The notes beneath the pieces were generated by a model that saw nothing but the letters and a program-made list of their open reading frames with translations, was not told the origin of the DNA and did no database searches. Positions 559 to 17,515 of a DNA stretch of 28,932 nt are shown in pieces; the stretch's first letter is position 1; every line of letters begins with the position of its first letter. The stretch spans positions 1 to 28,932 of the forward strand of contig JAYUBF010000316.1 of NCBI GenBank assembly GCA_043741435.1, given 5' to 3'. Source of the stretch: Myxococcales bacterium. Lineage in GTDB: Bacteria; Myxococcota_A; Polyangia; Palsa-1104. The position numbers and the translations under genes are program-made.

Positions 559-3683
<3,125 letters not shown>

Positions 3684-3968: not shown

Positions 3969-4184
3969 TCAGGCGGCCCACGTGAGCGACAGCTTCCTTC
4001 GGTGACGGACGCAGTCGAGCAGGTAGAGATCGATGAGCTTCTGGTACGGGAGGTTTGTCTCTGCCGCCAGCTTCTTGAAGTAGTCGATCACCGTCGGACT
4101 GAAGTTGATTCCGACGGCCTTCTTCTTGCCGGCGTAGGCGTTCTTGACCTCGCGCATCTTGGCGAATTCATATTCCTTCTTCAT
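3969..4184 (-). CDS. brnA: BrnA antitoxin (CopG/RHH-like, type II TA)
   Basis: 71 aa; INFSPTVIDYFKKLAAETNLPYQKLIDLYL matches BrnA family; AAGGAG RBS 10 nt upstream; overlaps brnT 3' end by 17 nt. Confidence 0.75.
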   Translation of the reverse strand: MKKEYEFAKMREVKNAYAGKKKAVGINFSPTVIDYFKKLAAETNLPYQKLIDLYLLDCVRHRRKLSLTWAA

Positions 4185-4452
4185 AGGTCTTGCTCTCCTT
4201 CCGGGTCGCTTTCCGAGCCGAGATGATACGGACGATTGAGTCTGCCGCGCTGTGGCCGTGCACGACGACGAGCAACCGAGGTGCGGAGCTCAGCCCGAGG
4301 ATCACGAAGCGGTCCTCACGGTCGGAGTGATCGTCGTCGTAGAACACCCGCGCCTGCGAATCCTCGAAGACAGACTGCGCTTCCTCAAACCACACCTTGT
4401 GCTTCGCCCGGTTCTGCTTGTTCTTCTGCTTGTCCCATTCGAACCGGAGCAT
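4168..4452 (-). CDS. brnT: BrnT toxin (DUF497 ribonuclease toxin, type II TA)
   Basis: MLRFEWDKQKNKQNRAKHKVWFEEAQSVFED...IVRIISARKATRKESKTYEE is a clear DUF497/BrnT pattern; the track ORF is over-extended upstream; ATG at 4452. Confidence 0.8.
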   Translation of the reverse strand: MLRFEWDKQKNKQNRAKHKVWFEEAQSVFEDSQARVFYDDDHSDREDRFVILGLSSAPRLLVVVHGHSAADSIVRIISARKATRKESKTYEEGI

Positions 4453-4477
4453 TAATCTAGATATTATATAGATTAAT
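4451..4477. promoter_or_regulatory. AT-rich perfect 9-bp inverted repeat ATTAATCTA-N9-TAGATTAAT containing a consensus TATAAT (minus strand) ending 10 nt before the brnT ATG; putative brnTA promoter/operator, possibly leaderless transcript
   Basis: 27-bp 100% AT-rich palindrome in a ~68% GC genome directly abutting the brnT start; upstream TTGGCA -35-like hexamer. Confidence 0.5.
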
Positions 4478-4489
4478 GGAATCTGCCAA

Positions 4490-5095
4490 GTGGCAAAGGC
4501 GAAACGAGGTCTCGAAGGTTTGCCAGTAGGCGCGCGTTGGCGTCTCTTGCCTCTGTCGCGAAGCGATGCTCTGGTAGCGCGCATGGCTCCCTCCGCCGAT
4601 CTCGCCGAACGATTCCTCGAGCAGCTCTTCGACGCCACCGGGCCTGCACCCGCCGTCGACTGGGATCGCTTCCGTATGATGCAGCTCATCCCGGGCACCG
4701 CCGGCGCACCCGATGTAAATGCGCGCGATCAGCTGGTCGCGCGGGGTTTCGTCGAGATCGCAAAGGGTTCGTTCAACGCAGAATCCGAGCGTCGCTCGTT
4801 ATCGTCGCTGCGCGCACTTTTCGAGCAGATCGTCGGTGCGCAGTACAAGGTTGTCGCGTTCGACAATCCGATGGTCGGCGCCCTGCGACAAGGACCCACG
4901 CCGGGCGCGCCGCCGAACCTTGCGCGCCTCCTGTCCGCCGTATCGGACATCGTGACGAACGCCGAGCCCATCACCATCCGTTCCGATGGTGACGTGCTCG
5001 GTGAACGGCTCATGACGTTGCTGTTCGTGAACGGAAAGTACGTGGGCTTCCTACCGGGCCGACGCGAGGTTGCGCCAGGCGCCGCGAAGGCCTAG
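4490..5095 (+). CDS. Hypothetical protein (201 aa from GTG 4490; alternative ATG 4583); no recognisable domain
   Basis: ORF divergent from brnT; stop codon overlaps the stop of the convergent flotillin gene (CTAG). Confidence 0.35.
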   Translation: MAKAKRGLEGLPVGARWRLLPLSRSDALVARMAPSADLAERFLEQLFDATGPAPAVDWDRFRMMQLIPGTAGAPDVNARDQLVARGFVEIAKGSFNAESERRSLSSLRALFEQIVGAQYKVVAFDNPMVGALRQGPTPGAPPNLARLLSAVSDIVTNAEPITIRSDGDVLGERLMTLLFVNGKYVGFLPGRREVAPGAAKA

Positions 5096-7152
5096 ACCTT
5101 CGCGACGGGCGGCGCCGCGATGCGTGCCTGCAGACCTTGACGAATGGCCTCGGCGGCAGCCGAGCGAGGACCGATCGCCGCTTCGCCGATCAGTGATTCA
5201 CCGACCTTGTCGGACAGCAGCATGGCGAGGAGCGCCTCCATCACGTTGCCGTTGCCACCCTTGCCGTCGGCGCCGCTGCCGCCGATCACGATCTTCGGCA
5301 CCACGTCGACGCCTGCGGCCTGGATGGCCTCGGCGAAGCGACTCATCACGCTCTGCGTGAGCTGGAACCGCGGCCCACCGTAGGCGCGGACCTGCTCCTC
5401 GACGGCGAGCGCCTGCGCGACACCGACGCGGGCCACGCGCTCGGCTTCGGCACCGGCGAGCAGCTCGATCTTCGAGGCCTCGCCTTCACCATGCAGACGC
5501 GTGCGGTCACGCTCGGCTTGCGCCATGACTTGAATCTGTGCCGCCTGTTGCTGCGCGCGCGCAAAGTCGGCCTTGCCCTGGTTGGCCTGCACGGTGATGG
5601 ACAGCTCCGACTCGGTGATGTGCGTCTGCTGTTTCGCGCGCGACTCGGCTTCGCGTAGCTCGCGCTCCTTCACGGCCGCCTTCTCCTGCCGGCTGTAGGT
5701 CTCGACTTGCTCCTCGGCGATCTGACGAGAGCGCAGCTGCGTGAGGATCTGCTCGATCTGTCCACCTTGGCCCGACGGTGTGCCGATGAGGACTTCCTGG
5801 AGCTCGAGGCTGTACGCGGCGAACTTGGTGCGCATCTCGGAGCCCGACTGATCTTGGATCGCCGAGCGATCTTGGATGAGCTGGATCAGCGTGCGCGTCT
5901 GGCCGATGTTCTTGAAGTACGCGGCCACCATCGGGTCGAGCGTCTGCTCGACGAGGCGCTTGATGTCACCGAAGCGCTGCACCACGAGCGGCGCCTTGCG
6001 ATAGTCGATGTGCACGACGACGCTGAGCGGCAGTGACGGCTCGAAGGCGTCCTTCGTGATGAGCGACACCTCGGCGAGGTTCTCGTCGAACTTGTGCGCG
6101 CCGGTCTCGGTGCGGTTCCACTTCAGGATGAAGTTGGTGGTGGGCACGATGATGACCTTGCCCGCGTATGTGTTGAACGCGTACTTGCCGGGCAAGAGTG
6201 GCTCGTTCCACACGCCGCGCAGGCCCTTGCCGACCATCTCTCCGTGGCGATACCCCTCGCCCGACAGATCGGTGCCCTTCGTCCCGGTGTAGGAGACCAC
6301 GACGCCCACGTTGCCGACGTCGATCACGGTCTTCGGCACCGCCTCGACGGTGGCGAACAAGCGATTGATGTAATACGTGCCCTCGGCAAGCACCTGCAGC
6401 TGACGGCCACGATTACCGCCGGCGCGGAGGAAGCGCTCCGGATCTTGAAAGCTCGCGTGGAACGTCTCGGGTACGCTCGGATCGTCACCAATGGTGGGCG
6501 CGATGATCTCACCATCGGGCAGCGACGGGCCGTCGTGTACCGTCACGACACCGATCGCATCGTCGGCGCCTTGGATGACGATGGGCACAAAGCCCCAACG
6601 CTCGTTGAGGAGCTGTGCCATCGCGGCGAACACCTTCTCCTCCTCTTTCTGGAGCTGGTGATAGAACACGCCGCGCTCGGTGATGACGGCGAACTGCGCG
6701 AGGTTGATGGCGTAGGTGCCTTCCCGCAACAGCTTGCGCTGAGGACCGCGTTGACCGCCCTTGCGCAAGAACGCTTCGACGTCTTGGAAGTCGTCGGCGT
6801 CGACGTTGCTGGCGAGTGTTTGGTTGTTGGGCAACTGTTGTCCGTCACGCGCGAACAAGTAGCCGAGGTGACCCTGACCGATCGTCACGAGCGGCTGTAT
6901 ATGCACCGAGTAGACGAACATCGGGAGGAAGTGCACGCCACCGCGCAGCACATGCGGCTGAAAGCCGGCCTCGCCGCGGAGCGCGATGATGCCGCTCTTG
7001 ATGGACCCGCGCGGCGAGAACCGCTTCTCGACGATGCCGACCTTGGAGTTGGGGATGAAGCGGATCGATCCGAACAGGTAGAGCGCGACGAGCCCGCCCA
7101 ACACGTACACCAACGTCATCCACGTACTGTCTGCCATGACCTGCGAGAACAT
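5092..7152 (-). CDS. Flotillin-family SPFH/band-7 protein (YqiK-like), N-terminal TM anchor, long coiled-coil
   Basis: 686 aa; N-terminal hydrophobic segment, SPFH domain, EA-rich coiled coil (AEEQVETYSRQEKAAVKERELREAESRAKQQ...), typical flotillin architecture. Confidence 0.8.
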   Translation of the reverse strand: MFSQVMADSTWMTLVYVLGGLVALYLFGSIRFIPNSKVGIVEKRFSPRGSIKSGIIALRGEAGFQPHVLRGGVHFLPMFVYSVHIQPLVTIGQGHLGYLFARDGQQLPNNQTLASNVDADDFQDVEAFLRKGGQRGPQRKLLREGTYAINLAQFAVITERGVFYHQLQKEEEKVFAAMAQLLNERWGFVPIVIQGADDAIGVVTVHDGPSLPDGEIIAPTIGDDPSVPETFHASFQDPERFLRAGGNRGRQLQVLAEGTYYINRLFATVEAVPKTVIDVGNVGVVVSYTGTKGTDLSGEGYRHGEMVGKGLRGVWNEPLLPGKYAFNTYAGKVIIVPTTNFILKWNRTETGAHKFDENLAEVSLITKDAFEPSLPLSVVVHIDYRKAPLVVQRFGDIKRLVEQTLDPMVAAYFKNIGQTRTLIQLIQDRSAIQDQSGSEMRTKFAAYSLELQEVLIGTPSGQGGQIEQILTQLRSRQIAEEQVETYSRQEKAAVKERELREAESRAKQQTHITESELSITVQANQGKADFARAQQQAAQIQVMAQAERDRTRLHGEGEASKIELLAGAEAERVARVGVAQALAVEEQVRAYGGPRFQLTQSVMSRFAEAIQAAGVDVVPKIVIGGSGADGKGGNGNVMEALLAMLLSDKVGESLIGEAAIGPRSAAAEAIRQGLQARIAAPPVAKV

Positions 7153-7173
7153 GACGGCACTCCATTTGAGAGA

Positions 7174-7198
7174 CGGACACGGCTATGTGCCGTGTCCG
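7174..7198 (-). promoter_or_regulatory. 9-bp perfect stem hairpin (CGGACACGG-N7-CCGTGTCCG) 23-47 nt upstream of flotillin ATG and ~55 nt downstream of the AAA+ gene stop; terminator/attenuator or 5'UTR structure
   Basis: Inverted repeat read from sequence; followed on the minus strand by UCUCUC then GGAG RBS. Confidence 0.3.
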
Positions 7199-7250
7199 AG
7201 AACCATGTGGCCTTTTGCCTCACGGATGCGTGGATAACGTGTGCGAGCTG

Positions 7251-8159
7251 CTAGCCGCGTGGATCGGCGAGCGCCCTGCTGATGTCGTGGGCGACGACCT
7301 GTTTGCCATCCGAGTAGAGGAACAACGCGCGCTCGATCACGATCTCGAGCTCGCGGAAATTGCCCGGCCAACGCTGCACCCGCAGGAGGTCGAGGGCGTC
7401 TTGCTGGATGACGACGGTGCCCGTCGCGCCGGTCTCGCCTTCGAGGACGACGTTCGCGGGAAGGCCCCGCTGCGTACGCACGCGATTCGCCATCCAGCGT
7501 GCCGCGGCGGGCACGTCTTCCGGACGCTCGCGCAAGGGCGGCAGCACGAAGTCGAGGCGCGCGAGCTTGTGATAAAGGTCGTGGCGGAAGCGACCCGCGG
7601 CCACTTCAGTTGCGATGTTGCCGTCGGTGATCACGAAGATGTTGAGCTGCGTGCGGCGCTCGCGGACCTCGCCGTCGCGCGTGTAGCGCCCGCTCTTGAC
7701 GAGCTCCAGCAAGCGACGCTGGAGCTGGGGTGCAAGACCAATGACCTCGTCGAGCACCAGCGTGCCGCCATCGGCCTCGGCGACGGCACCTTCGGTGGAA
7801 CGGTCGCCTTTGTGCGTTGGCGCGGCGCCGAATAGCTCGTCGGACACGACGGCCTCGGGGCGACCGGAGGTGGACACGGTGACGAGCGGTCCACCGTCGG
7901 GATGCATGAGCTCGTGGAGAGTGTGAGCGAGGCCTTCTTTGCCGCAGCCGGGCTCGCCCGCGATGACGGCGTTCGTGGTGTACGCGCGAGCGCGCAGGCG
8001 CTCGAGCACGTCGATGATGTAACGCACCGACGGGTGAGGAGACGCGAGCCGTACTAGACCAGCCTCCGATCCCTTGTTGCGCTTGCTGCTGAATGCGCCT
8101 GCAGTGACCTCACCGAGCGAGGCTGCGTCTTTGCTCTTCTTGGACATGTGGACTCTCAT
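7251..8159 (-). CDS. Sigma-54-activator-like AAA+ ATPase lacking GAFTGA motif, receiver domain and C-terminal HTH
   Basis: Walker A GEPGCGKE, ELFG...GGTLVLDEV, FRHDLYHKLARLDFVLPPLRERPEDVP, WPGNFRELE are all bEBP AAA+ hallmarks; GAFTGA position reads AAPTHKGDRSTEG; protein ends ~35 aa after WPGNxREL so no DNA-binding HTH. Confidence 0.75.
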   Translation of the reverse strand: MRVHMSKKSKDAASLGEVTAGAFSSKRNKGSEAGLVRLASPHPSVRYIIDVLERLRARAYTTNAVIAGEPGCGKEGLAHTLHELMHPDGGPLVTVSTSGRPEAVVSDELFGAAPTHKGDRSTEGAVAEADGGTLVLDEVIGLAPQLQRRLLELVKSGRYTRDGEVRERRTQLNIFVITDGNIATEVAAGRFRHDLYHKLARLDFVLPPLRERPEDVPAAARWMANRVRTQRGLPANVVLEGETGATGTVVIQQDALDLLRVQRWPGNFRELEIVIERALFLYSDGKQVVAHDISRALADPRG

Positions 8160-8176
8160 ATGAGGCGGGAGAAGCG

Positions 8177-8617
8177 TTAGCGCGAGAAGCCGAGCAGCTG
8201 ATCCATCGTCTGCTGATCAGCGTCGGGAAACGGATACTGCTCGAACTCGGCCGAGGCCACCCAGCGGAAGTCCTTCACGCGCCGAGCGACGAGCGGCTTG
8301 CCCTCGACGAGGGTGGCTTCATACAGCGCGAGCGCGACGCGATAGCCGTCGTACTCGTGCACCTTCTCGCCGAGCTTGCGGCCGATCTTGCCGTCGGCGT
8401 CGAGGCGCTCCTTGAGCTCGCGACGGAGCGCGTCCTCGTCGGCCTCGTTGGGCTCGACCTTGCCACCCGGGAACTCCCACAGGAGCGAGAGCACCGCTTG
8501 ATCCCGGCGCTGGGTGATGAGGTAGCGACCTTCGCGCTCGACGACGGCGGCCACCACGCGCACGGTTTTTTTGCCGACGACATCTGACACGACGATCTCC
8601 TTCGCCTGGGAATACAT
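8177..8617 (-). CDS. NUDIX hydrolase (MutT/NudG-like)
   Basis: Nudix box WEFPGGKVEPNEADEDALRRELKERL; ATG at 8617 (track ORF extends to 8674 via alternative starts). Confidence 0.75.
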   Translation of the reverse strand: MYSQAKEIVVSDVVGKKTVRVVAAVVEREGRYLITQRRDQAVLSLLWEFPGGKVEPNEADEDALRRELKERLDADGKIGRKLGEKVHEYDGYRVALALYEATLVEGKPLVARRVKDFRWVASAEFEQYPFPDADQQTMDQLLGFSR

Positions 8618-8687
8618 CCCCACGCGTGTTCCGAAATACACATCCGAGAATTTGAGGAATCGGCATCGTAGCACGACGCCAGCCTGC

Positions 8688-9809
8688 CTAGCCGCCCTTG
8701 GTCGCGAACAAGATGAAGAGCGCGAGCACGACGGTGATCGCCGTGACGAACGCCGCGATCTTCAACCACGAATAAGGCGCCTTACCCTGCACCTCGCCGG
8801 TCTGGCCGTTCACGAGGAAGCGATACACGTCGCCCCGATAGCGATACGCCGCGATCCAGATCGGCAGCAGCACGTGCTTGAACGTGAGCTCCGAGTACGT
8901 CGATGTCACGTCGAGCAGGCGCTGCGTGTCGCCGGGGACATCGCCGCTGCAGCGTGAGCGCTGGTCCTCGTCGATGCGCAGCTTCGCGGATTCGAAACCT
9001 ACTTTCAGGTCGACCGCGTACTCCTCGGCGCGCCAACCCGCGAGATAGCCCGGCGTGTAGGGCACGAGCGCGCTCATGTCGAACGACTTCAGCGAGTCGG
9101 CCAGTGCCTTGGGAAGCCCGACCGACGCGCACACGAGAACGTCGTCGTAGTCGTCGCTGCGCTGGCCCCAGGCGGACTCCCAGCGCGTGTGGCGTACCTC
9201 CCGCGTGCGGGTCTCGGTCTCGCCGCTGACCACCACCTCGTAGTCCTCGGTGACGGTGTAGTGATAGCCGGCATCCGCGGTCCAGCTGGACTCGACGTGT
9301 GCGTCGTACGTCCAGAACGGCACGTACACACCGACGAGATCTTGCACCTTGGCGAGGGTCTTCAAGTCATTCGGGCGGAACCAGAGCTTGCGCATCCACT
9401 TGCCGAACGCAGCGTTCGCGACTTTGATGTCGACGGTGAACGGCACCAATGACTCGGGCCGCAGGAGCGTACGCGCCTCCTCGACCCAGACGGCTGCGGC
9501 ACCGCAGAACGCGCAACGGGTGGCGATCTTGTTGTCGGTGAAGTGCATCGTCGCGCCGCATTCTTTGCAACGCGAGACCTTGTCCGTCTGCACGCCGAGC
9601 CCGTGCGGCATCGCGTCGAGGCCAGCGAACAGGTCGTGCTCGACGATGGCGCCCTTGCCACCCGGCACCTTGCGCGTGGCACCGCAGAAGCTGCACTTCA
9701 GGAGCTTGCTGACGGCGTCGTAGTGCTGCTCGCCGCTGCAGGCCTCGCACTTCCACTGCACCGTGGCGTCGGTCTTCGCGAGCGCCGTCTCGGCGGGATC
9801 GTTTCCCAT
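8688..9809 (-). CDS. Double zinc-ribbon membrane protein (two CxxC-X-CxxC ribbons N-terminal, conserved middle domain, single C-terminal TM); resembles Bacillus YdjG-type PspA-operon proteins
   Basis: CEACSG...CSFCG and CKECG...CAFCG; motifs GVYVPFW, HVLLPIW, NGQTGE; C-terminal WLKIAAFVTAITVVLALFILF. Confidence 0.55.
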   Translation of the reverse strand: MGNDPAETALAKTDATVQWKCEACSGEQHYDAVSKLLKCSFCGATRKVPGGKGAIVEHDLFAGLDAMPHGLGVQTDKVSRCKECGATMHFTDNKIATRCAFCGAAAVWVEEARTLLRPESLVPFTVDIKVANAAFGKWMRKLWFRPNDLKTLAKVQDLVGVYVPFWTYDAHVESSWTADAGYHYTVTEDYEVVVSGETETRTREVRHTRWESAWGQRSDDYDDVLVCASVGLPKALADSLKSFDMSALVPYTPGYLAGWRAEEYAVDLKVGFESAKLRIDEDQRSRCSGDVPGDTQRLLDVTSTYSELTFKHVLLPIWIAAYRYRGDVYRFLVNGQTGEVQGKAPYSWLKIAAFVTAITVVLALFILFATKGG

Positions 9810-9903
9810 GGGTCACGCAGTGTAGCCCGTCTGCACGCGGTTCGAGACTGCGCTATCCTTCAGCCCGACCGCGATCGGCACACCCACCTTGGAGGACGGC
9901 TAC

Positions 9904-11037
9904 ATGGGCATTTTCGACTTCGTGAAAAAAGGCGCGCAAGAGCTCTTCATCGCGCGACCCGACGAAGCCAAGGGGATGATCGTCTTCAAGCACCCCGACC
10001 AAACGGTGCCGAACAAGGCACAAATCACCGTCGGTCAGGACGAGTGCGCGTTGTTCTACAAGGACGGCCAGTTCGTCGGTCGCGTCGACGCGGGTGTGCA
10101 TAAGCTCGAGACGGGCAACATCCCGTTCCTCAACCGCCTCGTCGACACCTTCACGGGCGGCAACCTCTATCGCGCGGAGCTGTGGTTCGTCTCGCTGCGT
10201 GAAGCTGGTGGCTGGCGCTTCGGGGGTCGCATCGGCGACGTGGAAGATCCGAAGTCGGGTCTCGCCATCCAGCTCATGGTTCATGGCGAGTTCTCGGTCC
10301 AGACGGAAGACCCGATGAAGCTCATCGCGTTCTTCGGTCAACGTTCATGGTCCACCACGGAAGAGTTCGACGGCTGGTTCAAGAGCCTCGTGCTGAAGGT
10401 CATCCGTGATCGCATCGCCGAGCTGTGCGTGAAGCAGAACGTACCTCTCCTCAATGTGACGTCGGGAGCGCTCACCGAAGAGGTGGAGGAAGTGGTGCTG
10501 AAGGGCATCGCGCCGCAGCTCTCGCCCTACGGCATGAAGGCCGTGCGCCTCGGCAACTTCGTCGTGTCGATGAAGGAAGAGGACGAGATCCAGCTGAAGG
10601 CGCTCTATAAGGACGCCGCGCAGATCCGTATGGCGCAAGGCGCCAACATGGGCGCGTACCAGCAGTTCGCCGCGGGCAAGGCGATGATGGGCGCGGCCGA
10701 CGGGATGGCCAAAGGGGGCGACGGCGGAGGCGGTGGCAATCCGATGCTGGGCGGTGCCGGCCTCGGTGTGGGCCTCGGGATGGCGCAGATGTTCAACCAA
10801 TCGAACCAGGCCGCGCAGCAGCCAGCGGTTGCGCCGGCCGCGGCTGCACCCCAGTCACAGCTGCGTGCGCTGCTGCAGACGGCGCAAGCCAAGGTGGCCG
10901 GTGTGGCGGACGCCGATACCAAGACGCGGCTCGAGGGCATGATCCGCGACCTCAAGGGCGCCGTCGCCAAGGGCGACAAGGCGAAGCAGGGCGAGCTCGA
11001 GACCGAGCTTCAAGATCTGCTGTTCGTCTTGGAGTAG
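9904..11037 (+). CDS. SPFH/Band_7_1-family protein (YdjI-like), Gly-rich linker and C-terminal coiled-coil
   Basis: Starts MGIFDFVKKG with GGAGGA RBS 7 nt upstream; pattern typical of the Band_7_1 subfamily; divergent from the zinc-ribbon gene. Confidence 0.65.
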   Translation: MGIFDFVKKGAQELFIARPDEAKGMIVFKHPDQTVPNKAQITVGQDECALFYKDGQFVGRVDAGVHKLETGNIPFLNRLVDTFTGGNLYRAELWFVSLREAGGWRFGGRIGDVEDPKSGLAIQLMVHGEFSVQTEDPMKLIAFFGQRSWSTTEEFDGWFKSLVLKVIRDRIAELCVKQNVPLLNVTSGALTEEVEEVVLKGIAPQLSPYGMKAVRLGNFVVSMKEEDEIQLKALYKDAAQIRMAQGANMGAYQQFAAGKAMMGAADGMAKGGDGGGGGNPMLGGAGLGVGLGMAQMFNQSNQAAQQPAVAPAAAAPQSQLRALLQTAQAKVAGVADADTKTRLEGMIRDLKGAVAKGDKAKQGELETELQDLLFVLE

Positions 11038-12053: not shown

Positions 12054-12746
12054 TCACGAGAGGAGCTCCTGCCGAACGTTGACGGCTGGCAAGGGCAAGA
12101 GGTCGTGCGCGAAGGTCCAGGGCCACGTATGACGGCCCTCCGGCGGCAAGCCGCCGACGCGCGTGATTACCACGCGCAAGAAAGAGCGCGTGGCATCGTT
12201 GAGGTAGCCACCGCCGCGCGGACCCTCCGGCAGCTCGCACATCGCCGCGTAGCGACGCCAGATGGCGGCGAAGATCTCGTCGCGGCGCACCTTGGCGAGG
12301 ATGGACGCGGCTGCGACAGCGACGTGCACGGACTCTCCCTTGTCGTGTGCCTCCAAGATCGGATAGCGCGGGATGAGCGGTGAGAACAGCCGCGCGCCAT
12401 CGCACACGATGCGCTTGCAGGGCGGCGCGTGATCGATCATCGACGCCGCGGTGCGCTGCTCGAGCCGGTTGAGGCCTTGCACGGCACACGCGCGATCGAC
12501 CTCGTGCACGTCGAGCACCCGGATGGTCACGTAGTCGGCGACCGCCAAGATGCGCGGGACCAGCGACGAGCGAACCTCGTGCGCGTCCGGTCCCGCGAAG
12601 GCCTTCGAGTCGGCCACACCCGCGCGGGTGAGCGCAGCGGAGGCGCGTGGGTGCAATGCGACCGCAGCCATCACCATCGGCCCGACGATGGGTCCGCGAC
12701 CCGCTTCATCGATGCCGAGGACGCGATCTCCGTGGATCAGTTTCAT
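12054..12746 (-). CDS. rnhB: Ribonuclease HII
   Basis: MKLIHGDRVLGIDEAGRGPIVGPMVMAAVAL matches the RNase HII active-site region; ATG overlaps the stop of the upstream dynamin gene (ATGA). Confidence 0.9.
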   Translation of the reverse strand: MKLIHGDRVLGIDEAGRGPIVGPMVMAAVALHPRASAALTRAGVADSKAFAGPDAHEVRSSLVPRILAVADYVTIRVLDVHEVDRACAVQGLNRLEQRTAASMIDHAPPCKRIVCDGARLFSPLIPRYPILEAHDKGESVHVAVAAASILAKVRRDEIFAAIWRRYAAMCELPEGPRGGGYLNDATRSFLRVVITRVGGLPPEGRHTWPWTFAHDLLPLPAVNVRQELLS

Positions 12747-15697
12747 GGGGTCGGTGGTTCTTGTAACCCGGCAGCGATCACCTGGCGCAAGGATTCGATT
12801 GGCCCGACGAGCCGACACTCGAGGTCGAAGCGACCGAGCGCGACGTCCTCGCGGTGTTGCGCGATGGCGGAGAGGAGATCGGAGAACAAGGCCTGGCAGT
12901 AGGCGCGCAACGGTTGGCGCAGCTCTTCTTCGAGCGTGTCGTCGTCGAGAGGCGATGCGCGCTCGAGTGCCCTGCGCACCTCGGTCTCGACGAGGTCGAG
13001 CTTCGGCAGGTCGCGCGAGAAGAAGGTGGCAACGGCGCCGCCACGCAGATAGCCACGCACGAACGCGCGATAGCGACCGAACACGCGATCGTCGAGGAGC
13101 TCCAGGCGATCGAGCACGGCGGCCCGTTCGCCCGGGCCCACCAGCTGCGCGAGCACGGACACCGAACGTCGCAGCTCGTCGAGCAAGCGCAGCCGCGAGG
13201 TGGCCAAGGCCGTGGTGAGACGCTCTTCGAGGAGCGCGAGCAAGAAGTCGCGGTCGGCCGGGGTGGCCTCGTTGCCGCCGAACAGCGAGCGACGGGGCCG
13301 TACGAAGTCGAGCACCTCGCGCGTGCAGACCTTCAGCGCCTCATCGGAGGCCTCGAGCAAGCGACGTCGCTCAGCCGGCAAGAACTCGTGTGTCATGGCG
13401 TAGCTGTCCGCGCGCACCGCCGCTGCGGCGCGATCGTCCGCATCGGTGGAGAGCGTGCTCAGTTTCTGGTCCACGATCTGGCGAGCTTGCTCAAGGAGAG
13501 AGGCCGCGCGCGTCATCGCCACCCGACGCTGGATGACGCGCGCTCGATTGAAGAACCGCTCCTCGAGCGTCGCATCGAGCGTGGGATAGTTGGATGCGGC
13601 GAGCGCCGTAGCATCTCCACTACGTCGAGCTGCGAGTGCGGCCCGTGCGGAGACGGGCACCACGGTCTCGAGGCGGTCACCGACGCTGCGCTGCACGTGG
13701 GCGATGATCTGCGCGCGCTCGCCCTCGTCGGCGCGATCGATCTTGTTGAGCACCCCGAGGATCTTGCGACCGTGCGAAGCGATCTTGCCGAGGGCTTCTC
13801 CTTCGGAGGCCTTGGCTGCTTGGTCGACGGAGAACAACCAGATCACCGCATCGGCTTCCTCGATGAAGCGGCGCGCCGTGGCTTCGTGCTCCGGATGGAT
13901 GGAGTTGAGGCCCGGCGTATCCACCACGTTGATCCGTTGCAACACCTCGAGCGGAAACAAGAGCTCGACCAGGCGAATGCGCTTCGCTTGCTCGGCGGTG
14001 AGGTTCTTCAGGAACGCCGGCACGTCGGCCCACGCGATCTCTCGCGTGCTCTCGTCGTGGTGGATGATGCGGCCGCCGCGCTCGGGTCCGTACTTGAGGA
14101 GGTTCACCGTCGCGGTGGTGGGCGTGACGCCCATCGGTGCTACTTCTTCGCCGAGGAACGCATTCACGAAGGTGGACTTGCCCGCGTTGAACTCGCCCAT
14201 CACCGTGATGACGAGCGGGCGATCGAGCGACTCGCGCAATCGGCCGAGAGCAGGTTGCAGCTCGGCCAGCTCGGGTGCCGATGTGGACAAGCGATGGGCC
14301 GCTGCGAGGAGACCCGCGACATCGCCCGGGGCCGGATCTTCACGACGAAACAACGCTGCGTAGCGGGTGCGCGGGCGCGGATCCGACGGCGAGAGCTGGG
14401 CAGCACGGCGCAGTGCCACCAGCGCCCCATCGCGCGTGCCACGACGCAAGGCCACCTCGGCCTCGGCCAGCTTCACCTCGACGGAGCGCAGCGCCAGCGA
14501 CGGATCGGCGAGCAGCAGCTGCGCCTCGGCGTCGAAAGCGGCGACGTCGCCTTCGCGCAGCAGCATGCGCAACGCGAGGGCCGCGTGAGCCTCGGGGTGG
14601 GTCGCGTCGCGCAGGAGGAGCGCCTCCGCGTACACCGCCGCGCGCTCGCGAAGATCCGCGCCGAGGGCCACACTCAACGCCTCCGCGAGCAGCGGCCTCG
14701 GATCGAGCAACGCGATGGCTTGGCCATCTTCCGGCGCCGCGACCTGGCCGCCACCAGCGAGCGCGCGATCGAAGGCATCGAGCGCGACCTCCGGCGATTG
14801 CGCCAAGGCCGCGATGCGCCCGAGCTCGACGAGGAGGCCCAGATGGCTCGGTGCGTGCCCGAGTGCTTGCAAGATTTCACCGCGCGCCTCGTCGAGCCGA
14901 CCCTCGAGGCGCGCGAGCTTCGCGAGGCCCAGGCGCGACAGCACCTCGGCATCTCGCAGATCACGCCCCGTCGCATCGAGCGGTTGCTTCGCCTCGGGCA
15001 ATGCCGCGATTCCCGCGAGCGCCGCACGGAACGACGTCTGCGCTTCTTCGCCGCGCCCGAGCGCGAGCGCGACCTCACCACGCGCTGACCACGCGAGTGG
15101 CGGTACCGGTTCTCTGCGGGTGGCACGCTCGAGGCAGATGCGTGCGGTGTCGAGATCCCCTTTGTGGAGTAGCGCTCGACCGAGCAACGTCTGCGCGGTG
15201 ATCTCGTCCGGCGCCGAGGCCACGGCCTTGCGCAGCTCCCGCACGGCGCGATCGTAGCGACCGAGCGCGAGGTTCGCGGCACCGAGGCCACGATACGCCT
15301 CCGCGCGGATTCCCACGTCGCCAGTGCCACCGTCGAGCGCACGGCGAAAATGGGAGATGGCCTTCTCGTGGTCGCCGCGGCTCATCGCCAGCTGACCCAG
15401 CGCGAGAAAGGGCTCCACGAAGCCCTCGCGCAGTGACGCTTGCTCGTACAGCTTCGTCGCGCCGTCCGGATCCCCCATCTTCTCGCGCACGACGCCGAGC
15501 AAATACTGGGCGCGAGAATGATCGGCGCGGATCACCAGCGCCGCCTCGAGCTCGCGCTCCGCGCCCTGAAGATTTCCGGCGTCGAGGTACGCCTGGCCCA
15601 GCTCGGTGTGCGCTCGCAGGTCGTCGGGGACGATGAGCTCCCCGAGCTGATCGGCGAGCTTGTCGAAGAAACCGGACGACTTGTCGGTGGGGCTCAC
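12743..15697 (-). CDS. TPR-repeat (N-terminal ~470 aa) fused to bacterial dynamin-like GTPase (C-terminal ~500 aa); no hydrophobic paddle
   Basis: Multiple TPR units (AQYLLGVVREKMGDPDGATKLYEQA..., AQTLLGRALLHKGDLDTAR...); G1 GEFNAGKST, switch I TPTTATVN, G3 DTPG, G4 NKID; GTG start 3 nt after the TAA of the preceding gene. Confidence 0.8.
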   Translation of the reverse strand: MSPTDKSSGFFDKLADQLGELIVPDDLRAHTELGQAYLDAGNLQGAERELEAALVIRADHSRAQYLLGVVREKMGDPDGATKLYEQASLREGFVEPFLALGQLAMSRGDHEKAISHFRRALDGGTGDVGIRAEAYRGLGAANLALGRYDRAVRELRKAVASAPDEITAQTLLGRALLHKGDLDTARICLERATRREPVPPLAWSARGEVALALGRGEEAQTSFRAALAGIAALPEAKQPLDATGRDLRDAEVLSRLGLAKLARLEGRLDEARGEILQALGHAPSHLGLLVELGRIAALAQSPEVALDAFDRALAGGGQVAAPEDGQAIALLDPRPLLAEALSVALGADLRERAAVYAEALLLRDATHPEAHAALALRMLLREGDVAAFDAEAQLLLADPSLALRSVEVKLAEAEVALRRGTRDGALVALRRAAQLSPSDPRPRTRYAALFRREDPAPGDVAGLLAAAHRLSTSAPELAELQPALGRLRESLDRPLVITVMGEFNAGKSTFVNAFLGEEVAPMGVTPTTATVNLLKYGPERGGRIIHHDESTREIAWADVPAFLKNLTAEQAKRIRLVELLFPLEVLQRINVVDTPGLNSIHPEHEATARRFIEEADAVIWLFSVDQAAKASEGEALGKIASHGRKILGVLNKIDRADEGERAQIIAHVQRSVGDRLETVVPVSARAALAARRSGDATALAASNYPTLDATLEERFFNRARVIQRRVAMTRAASLLEQARQIVDQKLSTLSTDADDRAAAAVRADSYAMTHEFLPAERRRLLEASDEALKVCTREVLDFVRPRRSLFGGNEATPADRDFLLALLEERLTTALATSRLRLLDELRRSVSVLAQLVGPGERAAVLDRLELLDDRVFGRYRAFVRGYLRGGAVATFFSRDLPKLDLVETEVRRALERASPLDDDTLEEELRQPLRAYCQALFSDLLSAIAQHREDVALGRFDLECRLVGPIESLRQVIAAGLQEPPTP

Positions 15698-15700
15698 GCG

Positions 15701-17515
15701 TTACGCTGGCGGGGCCCACAGGCGATCGCGCAGCGACGAGATGTGCTGCTCGATGGCGTGGAGGCGCTCGAGCTGCGCGACGATCTGCTCGTCCCGCTCC
15801 TGCACGTTGACGCCCTGGTTGCGGCGCTCGGCCAGCGCACGATCGAGCACCTCGCCAATTCCTTTGTGCAGCGCCTCGCCGGCGGCGGTCACGAAGTCGG
15901 ACAGGCGCAGCTGGAAGTCTTCGACGATGTTCTCGAACTTGGGGCCGATGACCAGCGCTGCACGATCGACCACTTCTTCGATGCCGCGCTTTGCCTGCGC
16001 CTTGATCTCGCCCGACACGCGGTCGCGCAACAACAGCGCGATGATCGGCGCAGCGACGGTGAGCAGGCCACCCACCAGCGTGTTTACGAACAGGAACACG
16101 CCGGTGCCGAGCGCGCCCAGCGCGAACACGCCCACGTCGTACTTCAGCGTGTCGACCTCGAGCTCGACCTTGGTGTCGGCGGGGCCGAGCTCGCGCGCGA
16201 GCGTGGCCATCGTCGCGTCGACGTCTTCATTGGTGATCTGGATGATCTCCTCGGCGAGGCGCTCGAGCTGCGCTGCGACCTTGTCTCCCAGCGTCTCGGC
16301 CCAGGTCTTCCACGTGTCCTCGAGGAACGGCTGCAGATACTTCTGCACGTCACCACCCGAGACACGATCGATCTCGTTCGGCAGGCGTCCCTTCAGCTCG
16401 CGCACGAATTCCTCGAGGTCGAGGCGAAGGCCGGCCTTGATCGCGTCGGCCTCGGCGCGGATGCGCAGGTGATGGGCGCGCAGGTGAGCACGCGCACCGT
16501 CGAGCTGGTGGCGTACCTTGCCGATGCGTGACTCCAGCTCGTCGAGCTCGAGCTCGAGCGAGCGGCGCTTGATGCCGAGGTTCTGCCGCAGATAGCCGAG
16601 CGTGCGCAGCCCATCGGCGATGCCGTTGTCGAGAAGCACCTGCCCGCGCGAGGTGGACAGGTAGCCGTTCAGGTGATCGAGCAGGGGCTTCATGCCCGAG
16701 GTCTCGCGCACGGCGGGATCGGCCGACAGCTGACGCTTGGCCGACAGCGGGAAGATCATCGGGTCGGGCACGACCTTGTTGAGGTGCTCGCGCGCAAAGC
16801 GCAGCGTCTCGTCGCGCTCGTCGGGCGCGAGCAGGTCGATCTTGCCGATGACGAAGAAGATCTTGTCGCGTGAGCGACGGAGGATGCGTTGCTCGAGGAA
16901 CGCGCGCTCGGACTGCTTCAGCACCTGCGCACCATCGAGCAGGAACAACACCGCATCGGCACGCGGGATATAGCCGTAGGTGATCTCGGCACGCTGCTCG
17001 TTGATGTCGTTGACGCCGGGCGTGTCCACCAGCGTCACCCGATCGCGCAGGATATCGGCGGGCCACGCGACTTCAACGAACTTCACCTGCATGGCCGCGC
17101 TTTGCGCCTGCTGGCCTTCGATGGTCACCCAGTCGTACAGCTTGTGCGGGTCGATCTGCTGCGTGCGACCGTCGGTGAAGTGGGCCGTCGCGGCTGGGTG
17201 CTCTCCCCAGATCAGGTGATTGATGGTGGCGGTCGTCGGCGTGATGCCGGCGGGCAAGACCGCGTGGCCGAGCAGCGCGTTCACGAAGGTGGACTTGCCG
17301 TGGTTGAACTCACCGACGACCACGAGGTTGAAGCGATCGTCGCGCAGCTTGGGGATGCGTTGATCGACCAGCTCCGAGCGGAGCGTCTCCATGCCCACTT
17401 CATTGGCGAGGTCGGCCGTGCGCTGCAGATCGCTCAGCAGCTGCGTCTTGAGCTCGGTGAGGCCCTGCAGCGTGGAACCGCCGTTGTCAGAGCCGTAGTT
17501 TGCGGACTCACTCAT
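15701..17515 (-). CDS. Bacterial dynamin-like protein (BDLP/DynA/LeoA-like large GTPase) with hydrophobic membrane paddle
   Basis: G1 GEFNHGKST, TPTTATIN, DTPGVND, GKID; hydrophobic segment VGVFALGALGTGVFLFVNTLVGGLLTVAAPIIALLL in the stalk region; start overlaps the M48-like gene stop (ATGA). Confidence 0.85.
   Translation of the reverse strand: MSESANYGSDNGGSTLQGLTELKTQLLSDLQRTADLANEVGMETLRSELVDQRIPKLRDDRFNLVVVGEFNHGKSTFVNALLGHAVLPAGITPTTATINHLIWGEHPAATAHFTDGRTQQIDPHKLYDWVTIEGQQAQSAAMQVKFVEVAWPADILRDRVTLVDTPGVNDINEQRAEITYGYIPRADAVLFLLDGAQVLKQSERAFLEQRILRRSRDKIFFVIGKIDLLAPDERDETLRFAREHLNKVVPDPMIFPLSAKRQLSADPAVRETSGMKPLLDHLNGYLSTSRGQVLLDNGIADGLRTLGYLRQNLGIKRRSLELELDELESRIGKVRHQLDGARAHLRAHHLRIRAEADAIKAGLRLDLEEFVRELKGRLPNEIDRVSGGDVQKYLQPFLEDTWKTWAETLGDKVAAQLERLAEEIIQITNEDVDATMATLARELGPADTKVELEVDTLKYDVGVFALGALGTGVFLFVNTLVGGLLTVAAPIIALLLRDRVSGEIKAQAKRGIEEVVDRAALVIGPKFENIVEDFQLRLSDFVTAAGEALHKGIGEVLDRALAERRNQGVNVQERDEQIVAQLERLHAIEQHISSLRDRLWAPPA

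Follow-up and report, generated by a model that had tools for sequence, protein, structure and literature searches.

A PspA-free YdjG/YdjI-like gene pair with neighboring Nudix and GAFTGA-less AAA+ genes in a clade of Polyangia

A 28.9-kb stretch of a Myxococcales genome (contig JAYUBF010000316.1, positions 1-28,932; hereafter, the window) carries two adjacent genes that are homologous to ydjG (samG) and ydjI (samI) of Bacillus subtilis and that stand there without a PspA gene. The first encodes a zinc-ribbon (ZnR) protein and the second a Band_7_1 SPFH protein, and behind the ZnR gene follow a gene for a MutT-like Nudix protein with a non-canonical Nudix box and a gene for an AAA+ ATPase that derives from the bacterial enhancer-binding proteins (bEBPs) but has neither the GAFTGA motif nor a DNA-binding domain. 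The block formed by these genes is conserved in one clade of Polyangia, and the ZnR/Band_7_1 pair itself occurs without PspA in many phyla. We lean toward a composite reading of these data, in which a SamG/SamI-type membrane scaffold pair is accompanied by clade-specific Nudix and AAA+ accessory or output factors.

All five genes that a first-pass annotation of this DNA had placed between 5092 and 11037 are present there, with only small revisions of their starts. Domain calls are Pfam matches on the substantial open reading frames (ORFs) of the window, and the features are as follows.

9904-11037 (ORF 9889-11037), plus strand: Band_7_1 SPFH protein (YdjI/SamI-like), 377 aa; Band_7_1 58.3 bits, public gene call
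9810-9903: divergent intergenic region between the starts of the ZnR and Band_7_1 genes, 94 nt
8688-9809, minus strand: ZnR protein, YdjG/SamG-like, 373 aa; BLASTP to YdjG, public gene call
8177-8623 (ORF 8177-8674), minus strand: MutT-like Nudix protein; NUDIX_4 78 bits
7251-8147 (ORF 7251-8159), minus strand: bEBP-derived AAA+ ATPase, 298 aa; Sigma54_activat 106.7 bits plus AAA_lid_14, public gene call
5092-7152, minus strand: N-terminally anchored SPFH protein (YqiK/flotillin-family type), 686 aa; Band_7 59 bits, public gene call

Public gene calls, recovered by exact-sequence look-up, match the ZnR protein (373 aa), the Band_7_1 protein (start 9904), the AAA+ protein (start 8147) and the 686-aa protein; the Nudix gene probably starts at 8623 (148 aa, as in L090), with 8617 and 8674 as alternatives. 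The gaps between the four minus-strand genes, given earlier as 70, 17, and 98 nt, are indeed short, although with the revised starts they measure about 64, 29, and 98 nt. A scan found no terminator-like sites between these genes, the sites in the window being at background level, and ZnR-Nudix-AAA+ form an apparent operon whose genes are probably co-transcribed. The divergent region at 9810-9903 presumably holds two divergent promoters; a consensus scan found no sigma-70-like promoter in it. A scan for sigma-54 promoters (TGGCAC-N5-TTGC, up to two mismatches) gave 21 matches against 29 expected, none of them in the divergent intergenic region or in the cluster, and scans for Rfam and tRNA features found none in the window.

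The YdjG/SamG-like and YdjI/SamI-like pair

Our reference for YdjG and YdjI was a B. subtilis-type pspA-ydjGHI locus (L087), found with a degenerate DNA pattern built from the published ydjG cloning primer (PMC8581546); its YdjG starts with MIISYKCPNC and ends with MGGGF, matching what the primer demands. The window ZnR protein aligns with this YdjG over its full length in BLASTP (28% identity over 360 aa, E 4e-41), which bears out its designation as YdjG-like. The alignment pairs ZnR residues 17-373 with YdjG residues 3-339 and runs from the two ribbons through the central domain and the NGQTG-x-V-GK-P motif to the terminal transmembrane helix. The central domain of YdjG has been described as YpeB-related and NTF2-like (Ravi et al. 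2024). The cysteines of the two ribbons (C21, C24, C39, and C42; C81, C84, C99, and C102) are invariant in 42 sequences, and an AlphaFold2 model (predicted local distance difference test, pLDDT, 73.9) shows two small ribbons, alpha+beta modules with long beta-hairpins, and a C-terminal helix. That helix coincides with a hydrophobic stretch at 348-372, is modeled with a pLDDT of ~87-95, and is consistent with a tail anchor. The family is large, with more than 4,400 homologues. No Pfam family scores over its cut-off on the ZnR protein, a PDB search with the ZnR profile returned generic ribbons only, and YdjG-like matches in a phage collection were all weak and unannotated.

The identification of the divergent gene as YdjI-like likewise held. 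The window protein matches Band_7_1 at 58.3 bits (cut-off 24), as YdjI also matches this family, and BLASTP aligns it with YdjI at E 2e-7 and with the SPFH partners of YdjG-like proteins in Paracoccus (E 2e-18) and Vibrio (E 2e-14); a PDB sequence search gave nothing useful. Its sequence is that of a soluble protein and contains a low-complexity stretch rich in Gly and a tail resembling a coiled coil; its C terminus has no zinc ribbon (no Cys, no ribbon match), nor was one detected in the relative L001. Band_7_1 partners differ in their C-terminal module. Most of those from Myxococcota, Blastocatellia, and Planctomycetota carry a double zinc ribbon there, Bacillus YdjI a single one, the partners from Vibrio, Paracoccus, and locus L071 GYF_2, and that from Comamonas HTH_17.

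A genome scan for the ZnR family yielded 80 loci, mostly from Myxococcota and otherwise from Chloroflexota, Acidobacteriota, Planctomycetota, and Deinococcus. A hidden Markov model search found a Band_7_1 gene in 29 of 84 ZnR loci and, every time, directly adjacent to the ZnR gene, at a distance of 91 nt or less. The two genes are divergent in Myxococcota, where relatives of the window space them 55 to 221 nt apart, and co-directional in Blastocatellia, Planctomycetota, and one proteobacterial metagenome-assembled genome (MAG); on replicons of Comamonas, Vibrio coralliilyticus, and Paracoccus the order is SPFH, then ZnR. Around distant ZnR genes (clusters c5, c10, c12, and others) the neighbors, read from sequence without Pfam confirmation, look like unrelated housekeeping genes (among them peptidases, a glycosyltransferase, rpoB, and radC). 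On the plasmid of V. coralliilyticus OCN008 (L096, 992-7053) the pair adjoins genes with annotations as TIR-domain and TRAFs-binding-domain proteins, in a defense-island-like setting. In one lineage of "Deltaproteobacteria" MAGs, rpoN lies 3 to 8 kb from the divergent pair (L055, 4979-6484, confirmed by Pfam; L050, 4202-5728; L023, 238-1806), with a gene for a Ser/Thr-kinase-like protein between rpoN and the pair.

The statement that the window lacks PspA was correct: no substantial ORF in its 28.9 kb matches PspA_IM30, and in six Pfam-annotated relatives there is no such match within 8 kb. The suggestion that this absence is unusual was not. PspA-free Band_7_1/YdjG-like pairs occur in Myxococcota, Acidobacteriota, Planctomycetota, and Alpha-, Beta-, and Gammaproteobacteria, and none of the Pfam- or GenBank-annotated loci outside the Bacillus-type locus has PspA beside the pair. 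Because a pair without PspA is normal across so many phyla, the missing PspA gene is not the novel feature of the window; rather, it is the link to PspA that looks like an elaboration specific to Firmicutes, seen among the loci considered here only in the Bacillus-type locus and described in this way by Ravi et al. as well. In Bacillus, YdjI and PspA are anchored by YdjG/H (PMC8581546), and more recent work there describes SamGH signaling that is restrained by SamI, a phenotype for which PspA is dispensable, and PspA-independent roles of SamGHI (bioRxiv 10.64898/2026.02.06.704340).

The window thus shares with B. subtilis pspA-ydjGHI (samGHI) the end-to-end YdjG/SamG architecture, a Band_7_1 homologue of YdjI/SamI, and the adjacency of the two genes. 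It differs from that locus in having neither PspA nor the TPM protein YdjH/SamH (no TPM_phosphatase match in the window), in the divergent rather than co-directional orientation of the genes, in the absence of a C-terminal zinc ribbon from its Band_7_1 protein, and in the Nudix and AAA+ genes that follow the ZnR gene. One relative, L001, has a LemA-TPM-TPM gene series ~7 kb away.

The Nudix and AAA+ genes of the Polyangia block

The arrangement Band_7_1 <> ZnR-Nudix-AAA+ is found in the window and in about 15 further loci (L001-L011, L017, L047, L085, and L086), all from one clade of Polyangia, with identities reaching down to 54% for ZnR and 56% for AAA+. In these relatives it always adjoins gyrB-recF-dnaN-dnaA, from which we take the locus to be oriC-proximal. 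Of 19 loci, 10 have a 4-bp overlap between the ZnR stop and the Nudix start; the gap from Nudix to AAA+ runs from -1 to 47 nt. The distance from AAA+ to gyrB, by comparison, varies from 50 to 5,255 nt and is filled by PilZ, FabH, NHL-repeat, or hypothetical genes and, in the window, by the flotillin-type gene and toxin-antitoxin genes. The block thus stays together better than the DNA around it, being uninterrupted in about 16 loci and keeping its tight spacing while both flanks turn over. Conservation of the gene order in myxobacteria, a test proposed with the first-pass annotation, accordingly gave a divided answer: the order Band_7_1 <> ZnR-Nudix-AAA+ is kept within this clade, but the flotillin gene falls outside it and the block breaks both ways, as described below. 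The sole interruption that we saw is an extra 180-aa ORF without a Pfam match between ZnR and Nudix in L001 (9413-9955). In L003, a near-identical relative, the AAA+ gene is read as two ORFs of 181 and 150 aa (4091-5121), a frameshift or pseudogene or else an assembly error.

The Nudix protein has the NUDIX_4 fold (78 bits), shared with MutT- and NudG-type hydrolases, and its best PDB matches are MutT, the CTP pyrophosphohydrolase NudG, and MutT2. It differs from them in the Nudix box, which reads GGKVEPNEADEDALRRELKERLDA: against the canonical GX5EX7REUXEEXGU it has REL-K-E-R-L-D, so that Glu57 of MutT, which is the second residue of the EE pair, corresponds to an Arg and the conserved Gly59 to an Asp. 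In alignments to these structures, RELKER stands opposite REIREE in MutT, RELAEE in NudG, and RELREE in MutT2. The Glu-to-Arg substitution is present in all alignable orthologues from the block, and L017 reads REVEGR, with both Glu residues lost. The protein also falls below every NCBIfam equivalog cut-off (PRK08999, 97 against 245 bits; MutT TIGR00586, 61.6 against 97.9). Nudix-box glutamates bind the catalytic metals, and because it is these residues that are substituted, hydrolysis is likely altered or lost, and the protein may bind nucleotides or hydrolyze them slowly.

The description of the AAA+ protein as a bEBP-type module without GAFTGA and without a DNA-binding domain proved robust, and both absences are fixed across its family. 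In alignments to the NifA and ZraR structures the GAFTGA site of the window protein reads AAPTHKGDRSTEG, so that ELFGAAPTHKGDRSTEG stands where canonical activators have ELFGHEKGAFTGA. The remaining motifs are intact: Walker A (GEPGCGKE), Walker B (LVLDEV), RFRHD with the Arg fingers R190 and R192, and sensor II (GNFRELE). The chain ends ~15 residues past the lid domain, with no HTH_8 match and no N-terminal receiver or sensor domain. We aligned 21 family members of 56 to 96% identity, all of them 282 to 302 aa long (~295 aa). All 21 share invariant Walker A and Walker B motifs, R190/R192, and sensor II, none has GAFTGA, and the loop that replaces it is itself conserved, with the consensus ELFGxAPxxKGERPTDGAV. 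A family with invariant ATPase motifs and a conserved replacement loop at 56 to 96% identity is one under constraint rather than in decay. Every family member stops right after the lid, none has a helix-turn-helix (HTH) domain, and the best 120 homologues are all between 208 and 302 aa long. The label "sigma-54-dependent regulator" that these ~295-aa proteins carry is wrong.

The core is closest to the NorR, NtrC, NifA, RtcR, and PspF models of NCBIfam. Searched with a profile, a set of 1.84 billion representatives gave 520 bits for the family itself (one representative), 217 to 281 bits for other short relatives (283 to 324 aa), which are GAFTGA-less and HTH-less as well, and ~165 bits for ordinary activators. 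In the nearest of the short relatives the L1 loop is shortened or missing. A second association of bEBP-like and YdjG-like genes is probably independent of the Polyangia block: directly upstream of ZnR and co-directional with it, L030 (7809-9989), L032 (7770-9971), L033 (7767-9968), and L065 (4220-5554) carry a gene for a long, GAFTGA-less bEBP-like protein with HTH_8. In L030 and L032 this protein is extended at its N terminus and matches Sigma54_activat, with Walker motifs that have degenerated to GxxGxGRR (A) and AD/GD (B); in L065 HTH_8 is the sole domain match.

Several known systems invite comparison with this ATPase. Like the PspF of the Escherichia coli Psp system, it is a bEBP-type AAA+ protein without an N-terminal regulatory domain that is encoded with membrane-stress components, and the PspF model of NCBIfam matches it at E 1.4e-34, under the cut-off. 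PspF, however, has GAFTGA and an HTH domain and activates sigma-54 promoters, whereas the window protein has neither element, and the window has no PspA, PspB, or PspC and no sigma-54 promoter that we could find. TyrR and HupR are GAFTGA-deficient bEBP relatives that work independently of sigma-54 and that, retaining their DNA-binding domain, are sigma-70 dependent. In VpsR a Sigma54_activat-family core has likewise lost its sigma-54-contact residues (PMC6158489); VpsR keeps its DNA-binding domain and is a sigma-70-dependent transcription factor, in contrast to the window family, which has no DNA-binding domain. A thematic parallel is found in archaeal ESCRT/Vps4 loci, where an AAA+ ATPase is encoded beside SPFH proteins with zinc ribbons in a context of membrane dynamics (PMC10936438; Makarova et al. 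2024), but the ATPase there is Vps4 and not bEBP derived, ESCRT-III is present there and absent here, and we claim no homology. Myxococcus xanthus PexR was considered as a further parallel and rejected, being a canonical bEBP.

The 686-aa SPFH protein and the surroundings of the block

The last of the minus-strand genes encodes a 686-aa protein with an N-terminal hydrophobic anchor, a Band_7 domain, and a long helical region rich in Glu, Ala, and Gln. These features, and the labels of its homologues, are those of flotillin/YqiK proteins; it differs from that group in giving no Pfam match to the Flot domain at E<=0.01, in having no NfeD/YqiJ partner, and in an N-terminal extension of ~270 aa that contains an internal repeat (FQD.E.FLR.GG.RG.Q...L.EGTY.IN). 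A PDB sequence search with it returned no match. Its homologues (P0244-P0362), labeled YqiK, flotillin family, or SPFH, are 70 to 75% identical across Polyangia, Eisenbacteria, Rokubacteria, and Methylomirabilota, an unusually high value between phyla that suggests either extreme constraint or recent horizontal transfer.

The proposal that a flotillin is a linked component of the system does not hold. The gene is absent from the L001-L086 loci, appears behind the AAA+ gene only where the AAA+ proteins are at least about 76 to 80% identical, and is solitary elsewhere; it is a recent, lineage-specific addition behind AAA+ and not a member of the conserved block. Its stop overlaps that of a convergent plus-strand ORF (4490-5095) for a 201-aa protein without a Pfam match, an ORF that is kept beside gyrB in L001, L006, and L008-L010.

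The left end of the window holds gyrB (565-3192, plus strand). Between it and the block lies a spacer in which the GC content falls to 0.60 and which contains, on the minus strand, genes for a PIN-domain toxin (3189-3683, 69 bits in Pfam) and a BrnT toxin (3969-4184, 85 bits), as well as a small BrnA-like ORF (about 4195-4440), read from sequence without a Pfam match, that is a probable antitoxin. On the other side, ~1.7 kb from the Band_7_1 gene, two tandem minus-strand genes encode dynamin-family GTPases (12743-15697, with N-terminal TPR repeats, and 15701-17515). They resemble bacterial dynamin-like pairs, which serve in membrane remodeling, and they are not beside the block in relatives. 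The far side of the block in relatives (L001-L004, L085, and L086) holds uvrA, PHA_gran_rgn, and AIRS, in place of which the window has RNase HII and the dynamin genes. The remaining genes of the window are ordinary housekeeping genes.

Readings of the block and their bearing on SPFH biology

In the composite reading that we favor, the tail-anchored, cytoplasmic ZnR protein would tether or regulate a soluble Band_7_1 oligomer at the inner face of the membrane. The complex would be a stress scaffold or sensor, much as its counterpart is a membrane-stress scaffold and signaling unit in Bacillus, and it would need no adjacent PspA gene. In the Polyangia clade, the variant Nudix and the AAA+ protein may serve this membrane complex as nucleotide-dependent accessory or output factors, to which the 686-aa SPFH gene would have been appended recently in the sub-lineage of the window. 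The AAA+ protein itself would most likely be an ATP-dependent oligomeric switch or accessory factor and not a transcription activator. The earlier idea of a remodeling ATPase finds no support in its pore loop: with an L1 loop that contains no aromatic residue, and that short relatives have in shortened form or not at all, threading or remodeling is disfavored, and an oligomeric switch would fit better. The composite reading draws on the homologies to YdjG and YdjI, the recurrence of the pair across phyla, the work in Bacillus, the operon-like spacing of the block, the constraint on the AAA+ gene, the second association of bEBP-like genes with ZnR, and the further SPFH gene behind AAA+. The physical or functional link of Nudix and AAA+ to the SPFH pair, drawn from gene neighborhood, is putative, and the biochemical roles of the proteins are inferred.

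A number of observations weigh against this reading. The genes of the block part company in both directions, with L013, L014, and L016 keeping Band_7_1 <> ZnR-Nudix and no AAA+ gene, and an 18,056-nt JGI contig (18056) keeping Nudix-AAA+-flotillin with no ZnR or Band_7_1 gene upstream. The block is limited to one clade, and synteny there extends over the entire oriC-proximal region (dnaA-dnaN-recF-gyrB ... uvrA), so that shared ancestry alone could explain the co-occurrence of its genes. A Nudix or AAA+ neighbor is absent from most YdjG-like genes and from every non-Polyangia pair that we examined, no partner of the YdjH/TPM kind is encoded in the window, and a distant short relative of the AAA+ protein (P0366) has different neighbors without Pfam matches. 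The L1 loop without an aromatic residue counts on this side as well.

The alternative that survives best builds on just these points, and we regard it as possible but less likely: the genes would be neighbors by inheritance, the pair would be the sole functional unit, and a MutT-type housekeeping Nudix and an orphan regulator of the AAA+ type would share its transcript by accident. The strong synteny near gyrB-recF-dnaN-dnaA and uvrA, the lack of Nudix and AAA+ genes beside the pair in other phyla, and a locus at which the Nudix gene is the constant while the ZnR/Band_7_1 pair and the AAA+ gene are each dispensable are all as this alternative would have them. It accounts poorly for a 4-bp overlap and tight spacing that are held down to 54% ZnR identity while both flanks turn over, for a Nudix box (E57 to R) that would be unexpected in a housekeeping MutT, for the bEBP-like genes that adjoin ZnR in a second lineage, and for the recruitment of an extra SPFH gene directly behind AAA+.

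Two readings go further than the composite one in taking the block as a relative of Psp. The first, which we consider unlikely, is a Psp-like module without PspA, wherein a SamG-like sensor and a SamI-like brake would control the bEBP-derived AAA+ protein, with the Nudix as a nucleotide-sensing or -clearing partner and a flotillin-type scaffold added in some lineages; if true, ATPases of enhancer-binding proteins would have been exapted to a role at the membrane that is not transcriptional. The second, a good deal more doubtful, is Psp-like sequestration, in which the ZnR/SPFH complex would hold the AAA+ protein at the membrane as PspA holds PspF, its release modulating sigma-54 transcription indirectly, for example, through mixed, inactive hexamers with true bEBPs. 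The bEBP-type core, nearest to the NorR, NtrC, NifA, RtcR, and PspF models, speaks for sequestration, as do the parallel between sensor, brake, and PspF that has also been drawn for Bacillus (bioRxiv 10.64898/2026.02.06.704340), the bEBP-derived HTH proteins encoded upstream of ZnR in L030, L032, L033, and L065, and rpoN 3 to 8 kb from the pair in L050, L055, and L023. A protein with no GAFTGA and no HTH domain has, however, no direct route to sigma-54 or to DNA, the cluster contains no match to a sigma-54 promoter, the proximity of rpoN is confined to one lineage, and the poisoning of hetero-oligomers is pure conjecture.

We give almost no credence to the idea that SPFH, Nudix, and ATPase genes in a variable island make up an anti-phage defense or abortive-infection module: the Nudix matches the PADLOC candidate PDC-S07 (E 4.8e-37), PIN and BrnT toxin-antitoxin genes and two dynamin-like genes lie nearby, and the V. 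coralliilyticus pair is beside TIR-domain genes on a plasmid, but PDC-S07 is an unvalidated candidate that resembles a generic MutT-like Nudix, PADLOC matches none of the ZnR, Band_7_1, and 686-aa proteins and otherwise gives only generic RtcR/PspF-type AAA matches, the toxin-antitoxin genes sit in a variable spacer and are absent from relatives, and the block is fixed in position and vertically inherited beside gyrB, not a mobile or patchy island.

The locus had been proposed as an undescribed variant of a membrane-stress or SPFH scaffold system. For the PspA-free pair this does not apply, the pair being of a known kind and widespread, but its association with a GAFTGA-less, HTH-less AAA+ protein and a RELKER Nudix does appear to be undescribed, and a literature search found no paper joining SPFH proteins, a Nudix, and an enhancer-binding protein. 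SPFH scaffolds and SamG/SamI have been studied almost only in Bacillus and have been interpreted through their link to PspA. The presence of the pair by itself in many phyla moves the question from its service to PspA to the role of the pair itself. For that question the Polyangia block offers candidate partners: a conserved AAA+ family with intact ATPase motifs but without sigma-54 contact or DNA binding, and a Nudix protein with a mutated box. If these two proteins do work with the pair, they would provide a clear case of a transcription-activator ATPase that has been repurposed; if they do not, these data still annotate a widespread, uncharacterized two-gene module and warn against sigma-54 labels on such proteins.

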